From positions 6,184-37,633 of the forward strand of contig CAYHFH010000001.1 of the NCBI GenBank assembly GCA_964355865.1: a stretch of 31,450 nt of DNA, in the 5' to 3' direction. Positions 30,870-31,396 of the stretch are shown piece by piece. This DNA comes from an uncultured Gammaproteobacteria bacterium. GTDB lineage: Bacteria; Patescibacteriota; Microgenomatia; UBA10105; UBA927. Below the pieces are notes generated by a model, which worked only from the letters and a program-made list of their open reading frames with translations, was not told the origin of the DNA and searched no databases. Positions within the stretch are counted from its first letter, which is position 1; every line of letters begins with the position of its first letter. A program made the translations under genes and the position numbers.

Positions 30870-31262
30870 TCAAAGGTTCTTCGCGTACTCTTCCCAACGA
30901 GAACGATCCCAAACTTCAAAATGATCTCCGGCACCGATGACCATAATTTCCCGCGATATGGACGCGTACTCCTTGAGCTGGGCAGGCAAAAGAATACGAC
31001 CAAGTTTATCTATCTCAGCTTTTTGCGCTCCGGCAAACATATAGCGCCGGATTTTTCTAGCCTTTTCATCCGTTACCGGTGTATCAAGGTGCTTGGCTGC
31101 TTCCCGCTCCCAACTTTCCCGGTCAAACCCGAATATGCATGGCTCAAATCCTTTGGCGAGTACCAATTCCCGCTCTTCTATCTCTTGCCGTATCTTTCTT
31201 GGAAGCGTTACGCGGCCCCGGTCATCTAAACTATGGTCGTATTCCCCAAGGAATAATTTCAT
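30870..31262 (-). CDS. mraZ: Transcriptional regulator MraZ
   Basis: FLGEYDHSLDDRGRVTLP and DKLGRILLP (two AbrB/MraZ repeats with DxxxR); first gene of the dcw cluster. Confidence 0.97.
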   Translation of the reverse strand: MKLFLGEYDHSLDDRGRVTLPRKIRQEIEERELVLAKGFEPCIFGFDRESWEREAAKHLDTPVTDEKARKIRRYMFAGAQKAEIDKLGRILLPAQLKEYASISREIMVIGAGDHFEVWDRSRWEEYAKNL

Positions 31263-31396
31263 GCCAGGTAGTGAAATTTCGACTGCAGCGAGCTATTAAT
31301 TGCGTGACTTTTTTGATAAAAAATCATCATCTCACCTCGCCCGCCAGGCGCTTTCATTGGAAATGAAAGCGGGTCGAAATTCTACTACCTGGCATG
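31260..31396. mobile_element. MITE/REPIN-like structured insertion at the mraZ start (24-bp inverted arms, duplicated CATG)
   Basis: CATGCCAGGTAGTGAAATTTCGAC (31260-31283) pairs with GTCGAAATTCTACTACCTGGCATG (31373-31396) at 22/24. Internal perfect 10-bp hairpin at 31349-31371. Mobility is inferred, not shown. Confidence 0.6.
31354..31395 (-). other. Putative leaderless uORF MPGSRISTRFHFQ (13 aa)
   Basis: ATG lies 6 nt after an extended -10; stop TGA at 31356-31354. Translation is unproven. Confidence 0.35.

Follow-up and report, generated by a model that had tools for sequence, protein, structure and literature searches.

A 129-base hairpin-forming mobile element on the start codon of mraZ in a groundwater member of the Patescibacteria

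The mraZ locus and its 133-nt insertion

The window analyzed here is a stretch of 31,450 nucleotides (contig CAYHFH010000001.1 of assembly GCA_964355865.1, positions 6,184 to 37,633) from the genome of an ultra-small groundwater bacterium of the Patescibacteria/CPR; the assembly, referred to below as G000, totals 1.06 Mb in 147 contigs and is 88% complete. Close to the end of the window, the cell-division regulator gene mraZ is separated from its promoter by a structured sequence with inverted arms. The features of this region are as follows.

30870-31262, minus strand: mraZ, an intact 130-aa gene (Pfam MraZ, E = 5e-35), 98% identical to the sister-genome MraZ; its ATG (31262-31260) lies in the proximal CATG
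31260-31263: gene-proximal copy of the 4-nt target duplication CATG
31264-31283: gene-proximal arm, GTAGTG type, 20-nt core
31284-31372: 89-nt interior, unique to this copy, holding a GCGAG/CTCGC stem (31288-31292 / 31336-31340), an A/T hairpin (31305-31326) and a perfect 10-bp hairpin (31349-31371)
31373-31392: gene-distal arm, GTAGTAG type, which contains TAGAAT when read on the minus strand
31393-31396: gene-distal copy of CATG, whose ATG (31395-31393, minus strand) sits where the mraZ ATG sits in empty alleles
31402-31410, minus strand: native extended -10 box TGGTAGACT, 6 nt before the distal ATG and now 139 nt before the mraZ ATG
31406-31440, minus strand: four TGGnA boxes at exact 10-nt spacing (31406, 31416, 26, 36), left intact upstream of the insertion
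31354-31395, minus strand: sORF1, 13 codons, starting at the distal ATG and ending in a TGA that overlaps the next ATG
31259-31357, minus strand: sORF2, 32 codons, preceded further in by GAGGTGAG before an internal ATGATG, with a TGA that overlaps the mraZ ATG (ATGA)

With CATG included, the arms (31260-31283 and 31373-31396) are 24 nt long, complementary at 22 of 24 positions and 89 nt apart, and the 20-nt arm core occurs twice in the window against 0.01 matches expected by chance. When the stretch was folded as RNA from the presumed transcription start, the minimum-energy structure reached -66.5 kcal/mol (z = -6.9, with 0 of 200 shuffles folding as well) and contained the long arm helix, the GCGAG/CTCGC stem, the A/T hairpin and the 10-bp hairpin, with the A and U of the mraZ AUG paired. 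An Rfam search at permissive E-values returned only chance matches.

The initial annotation predicted that removing 133 nt would rebuild a leaderless mraZ, and this is exactly the sequence found in sister genomes. Upstream of mraZ, four relatives (G003, G002, G015 and G014) have the same sequence as the window, apart from a few substitutions, but without the 133 nt, and each ends in the promoter box (TGGTAGACT, or TGGTAAGAT in G015) followed by 6 nt and ATG. The pattern TGGTAnnnT-N6-ATG is conserved in 11 related genomes, with the spacer varying in the more distant ones, so mraZ is normally a leaderless gene behind an extended -10 box. The four TGGnA boxes, which end in this -10 box and have a TTGACA further upstream, are conserved across the family and are probably the MraZ operator, an inference drawn from what is known of MraZ in E. 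coli. Contigs of two independent groundwater runs span 30900-31450 without a single difference. In contrast, a contig from a different groundwater study, with 6 differences in 332 nt (roughly 98% identity), skips exactly 31260-31392 with 4 ambiguous letters at the joint. The filled allele is therefore real, the insertion is young, and the duplication is CATG.

A start-codon-associated family with paired arms

The arm core occurs in this genome as about 22 inverted pairs, 18 long (126-149 nt) and 4 short (78-83 nt), flanked by direct repeats of 4-5 nt that are mostly TATG or CATG (also TATGA). Every long copy abuts an ATG that opens an ORF of 57-450 aa, with the geometry arm, one base, ATG; for L33, L14 and SufS, the family profiles align from residue 1-3, so these are true N-termini. 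Turnover within the genus is seen at four further sites. Two copies on contig C2, both shared with the related genome G001, are empty in G002 and G003, with alignment overlaps of 4 and 5 nt that equal the duplication, while a third copy is empty in G001 and a fourth in G003. At the site of one G000 copy, G003 (C29:131200-132140) has an empty TATG and an extra membrane-protein gene of about 300 aa upstream, indicating local gene-content change around these sites. No second copy of the mraZ element's interior was found in the genome, in 40 relatives or in metagenome contigs; the searches returned only one 23-nt hairpin match in the relatives that is not an element, and one chance hit among the metagenome contigs.

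A scan of public genomes places the arm family in Patescibacteria MAGs, and the arm pattern is present, patchily, in 15 of 41 related genomes, with up to about 46 copies. In 83 copies pooled from this genome and those loci, 51 of 59 long copies abut an ORF of at least 50 codons at offset 0-1, against only 3 of 24 short copies. Compared with the background of all YATG sites, of which 35% are followed by 50 open codons, this gives P = 6e-16, although the copies are not independent. T precedes the ATG at 58% of long-ORF starts in this genome anyway, so the TATG bias mostly reflects start-codon context, and the shared feature of the targets is the start codon rather than the word TATG. The short copies in this genome lie near gene ends and promoters. 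For instance, the TAG inside the arm of the copy at C42:2755-2832 terminates the upstream ORF, and at C1:4345-4422, 1.8 kb before the window start, the L27 reading frame runs 30-odd nt into the element. Interestingly, long copies contain, about 50 nt from the 5' end, an internal degenerate copy of the 3' arm end (ACTACCTGG or CTGGCA), often followed by a TATG-like word (for example C75:2410-2539), which looks as if they arose from a short copy plus a second unit. At two further loci (the 3546 region of L122, and L094, Harrisonbacteria MAG), two copies lie in tandem and share one TATG, showing that an element's rebuilt start codon can itself be hit again.

Arm positions 1-9 and 12 are invariant in 80 copies. 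Positions 10-11 are G,A in one arm and A,G in the other in 78-79 of 80 copies, so that, when folded, each strand carries a G·T and an A·C mismatch, in opposite order on the two strands. Positions 13-15 and 19-20 vary between copies but match between the two arms of a copy; position 14 shows four pair types with only 6 of 80 copies mismatched. This is what selection on pairing gives, and not what simple protein-binding sites give, which points to a folded helix as the recognized form. The initial annotation noted a GAAATTTC-like palindrome in each arm, but the GAAATTTC palindrome is a property of this arm variant only, and other copies carry other, non-palindromic inner-arm variants. Beyond the arms, interiors are only moderately structured (median z = -1.45). 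They do, however, have a polarity relative to the host gene, with AAAGG at 18:1 and ACCTG at 9:0, sense against antisense, and SD-like 5-mers at 42:4, even though either arm type can be proximal to the gene (36 against 13). The SD-like GAAAGGAG motif lies 47-63 nt before the host ATG, too far to serve it, and may be a relic of the QGG codons of the nuclease gene described below.

A candidate nuclease partner

No DDE_Tnp_1 or rve match was found in this 88%-complete genome. Five RAYT-like Y1 (IS200-type) genes of 189-231 aa are present (C16:8765-9421, C145:13-582 on the minus strand, C104:2536-3225, C67, and C30:3644-4336), but each is flanked upstream and downstream by its own short GC-rich hairpin repeat, unrelated to the arms; these genes are candidate drivers of the other REP-like hairpins in this genome.

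In relatives, by contrast, arm pairs about 310 nt apart enclose one ORF of 88-92 aa encoding a GIY-YIG domain (Pfam, E = 7e-19), and the nearest solved chains, queried with this genome's arm-less homologue, are UPF0213 proteins and SLX1. A search with this ORF in 41 genomes gave 1-12 homologues in 38 of them. The ten closest (59-100% identity), in ten related genomes, are all bounded by the arms (span 301-319 nt) with the same mismatch, and nine of ten sit on a start codon in the same direction as the host gene; more distant homologues have no such arms. In these full-length forms the ORF fills the interior, its ATG being 26 nt from the element end and its TGA lying inside the 3' arm, 16-17 nt before the host ATG. 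No arm-bounded GIY-YIG copy is in the G000 assembly, which has only an arm-less 87-aa homologue at 49% identity (C58:1162-1425). This gene ends 12 nt before the ATG of an SGNH-hydrolase gene and could be an immobilized relative of the element's nuclease, or a trans-acting copy.

Searches of the accessible literature found no description of such an element, and the family is apparently unpublished. The closest published analogue is the Ssn/NTS system (Chenal et al. 2025, PMC11893778), in which a single-domain GIY-YIG nuclease gene of about 90-100 aa, specific for single-stranded DNA, is flanked on both sides by a hairpin repeat that also occurs many times in the genome. The authors of that work compare the layout with an insertion sequence and note that the enzyme cuts folded single-stranded DNA near the repeat. 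Each NTS is, however, a self-contained 28-nt hairpin with a conserved upstream tract, whereas here the two arms pair with each other across 40-270 nt, and there are target duplications, empty sites and start-codon placement; Patescibacteria are not mentioned in that paper.

Interpretation

We interpret the 129 bases at 31264-31392 as a non-autonomous copy of a small mobile element family of Patescibacteria, a reading to which, taken as a whole, we assign a probability of roughly 0.82. This supports the proposal of the initial annotation of a non-autonomous element with a CATG duplication. The element inserted into the lineage of this genome exactly at the mraZ start codon, leaving one ATG 6 nt behind the conserved leaderless promoter and a second ATG heading the intact mraZ gene behind a 133-nt, strongly folding leader. 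We infer that the arms act as a folded helix (single-stranded DNA hairpin or cruciform), with the mismatch marking which strand is which, and that this helix is cut and moved in trans by the 88-aa GIY-YIG (UPF0213/SLX1-like) nuclease. We would like to note that this last step rests on association only, as GIY-YIG nucleases are hydrolytic and are not known to perform strand transfer. Short copies share the arms but are mostly not on start codons, and nuclease target choice alone therefore does not explain the pattern. Copies are inferred to persist on start codons because the rebuilt ATG keeps the host gene alive, and an imprecise deletion there would be lethal.

Least certain is how mraZ is now expressed; no informative RNA data were found for this stretch, only runs with 4-6% of the sampled words. 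Transcription may still start at the native promoter, in which case translation of mraZ would depend on ribosomes that open the arm helix. This could happen through sORF1 and sORF2, chained by ATGA overlaps. However, 7.5% of shuffled interiors give the same chain, and in the family the strict relay is no more common than in shuffles (10 of 44 against 7.8 ± 2.4); a relaxed criterion, in which translation ends within 35 nt of the host ATG, is weakly positive (17 of 44 against 9.9), but the copies are related and inflate that result. Alternatively, transcripts could start at the TAGAAT inside the distal arm, 17 nt after the native -10 box, which gives a promoter-like match; such transcripts would lack the 5' arm and leave the AUG free, though this holds only for arm variants with that hexamer. 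An internal promoter in long copies was not supported, the best sigma-70-like scores being equal on the sense and antisense strands (mean 7.95 against 8.01). Targeting of leaderless promoters or open complexes is at best weakly indicated: TAnnnT exactly 6 nt before the ATG occurs in 8 of 44 targets against a background of about 9%, and in 2 of 16 in this genome. The background itself suggests a sizeable class of leaderless genes.

It remains possible, though doubtful, that after insertion the element was taken over as a regulatory leader of mraZ, a reading that does not exclude mobility. The long helix would hide the AUG, and the leaderless uORF chain, temperature or an RNase would open it, tuning the level of MraZ and with it repression of the division cluster. 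The pairing of two of the three bases of the mraZ AUG, the ATGA-linked ORFs and the relaxed relay result are in line with this, but the insertion is young and polymorphic, so there has been little time for selection, and the relay statistics carry the limits given above.

Less likely is an ordinary MITE derived from a DDE-type insertion sequence whose autonomous copy is unassembled or lost, with the GIY-YIG gene as mere cargo. Inverted arms plus a 4-5-nt direct duplication are the classical signature of DDE transposition, the genome is 88% complete and in 147 contigs, and repeats often break assemblies. Whatever its origin, the element is short, holds only the 13- and 32-codon ORFs, has terminal inverted repeats and a direct duplication, and is multi-copy and polymorphic, with five sites filled in this genome and empty in a relative. 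Against a DDE origin, besides the lack of a DDE_Tnp_1 or rve match in this 88%-complete genome, the only coding form seen, in 10 genomes, is arms plus one GIY-YIG ORF, and covarying inner arm positions with a conserved mismatch are not expected for sites that are simply bound by a protein. The Correia/NEMIS elements of Neisseria are similar in that they appear to be non-coding, about 100-150 bp long, present in many copies next to genes and co-transcribed with them, to have inverted arms that pair in RNA and a direct target duplication, and to be polymorphic for presence. The duplication here is (Y)ATG(A) rather than TA, the sequences are unrelated, copies sit exactly on start codons with a fixed interior polarity, the arms carry a conserved tandem mismatch and covarying positions, and no IS630-type or other DDE partner was found. 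The MIRUs of mycobacteria (Supply et al. 1997) are likewise short intergenic repeats inside operons, with small ORFs that appear to overlap neighboring stop and start codons as sORF2 does with mraZ, but they probably have no inverted arms and no target duplication, and the overlap is not a general feature of the present family.

A REPIN-like doublet mobilized by a RAYT (Y1 HUH) transposase, the alternative offered by the initial annotation, is not supported and appears very unlikely. RAYT-like genes exist, the element folds, and the arm statistics suggest recognition of a hairpin; as in REP/REPIN and IS200/IS605 systems, imperfections would tell the strands apart, and non-autonomous copies outnumber the gene. 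However, the RAYT-like genes carry other hairpins, a single arm is not a self-folding REP, no Y1 transposase lies inside the element, which has inverted ends, and copies carry target duplications whose first base follows the target (CATG with CATG, TATG with TATG), which Y1 transposition is not expected to produce. Finally, a conserved host cis-regulatory RNA of mraZ or an assembly artefact, although the predicted structure is strong and the contig ends 54 nt beyond the element, is refuted by the absence of the sequence at this locus in every relative examined and by the independent contigs that span it.

More tentatively, the family could be a new class of minimal transposon whose only protein is an 88-aa SLX1/UPF0213-like GIY-YIG nuclease recognizing the folded, mismatch-marked arm helix, and which lives on start codons so that it borrows the host gene's promoter and initiation site. 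In that case the mraZ copy is a natural experiment, in which a leaderless, self-repressed master promoter of cell division has been given a 133-nt structured leader with a chain of two uORFs, while a closely related strain carries the empty allele.

If the association holds, the element would be among the smallest self-contained mobile elements (about 310 bp, one 88-aa protein), and it would give the GIY-YIG fold a transposon-like role hinted at only by the Ssn/NTS layout. Its placement on start codons of essential genes (ribosomal proteins, SufS and, by N-terminal sequence, a likely sigma factor and thioredoxin, besides mraZ) raises the questions of how ultra-small bacteria start translation behind a 20-bp helix with no Shine-Dalgarno sequence, and how an element can be confined to start codons. 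The mraZ copy is a clean case for study, since the filled and empty alleles coexist in groundwater and the promoter and operator are conserved and readable. For genome annotation, these elements explain many odd structured leaders in Patescibacteria, and they create or shift stop codons of upstream genes.
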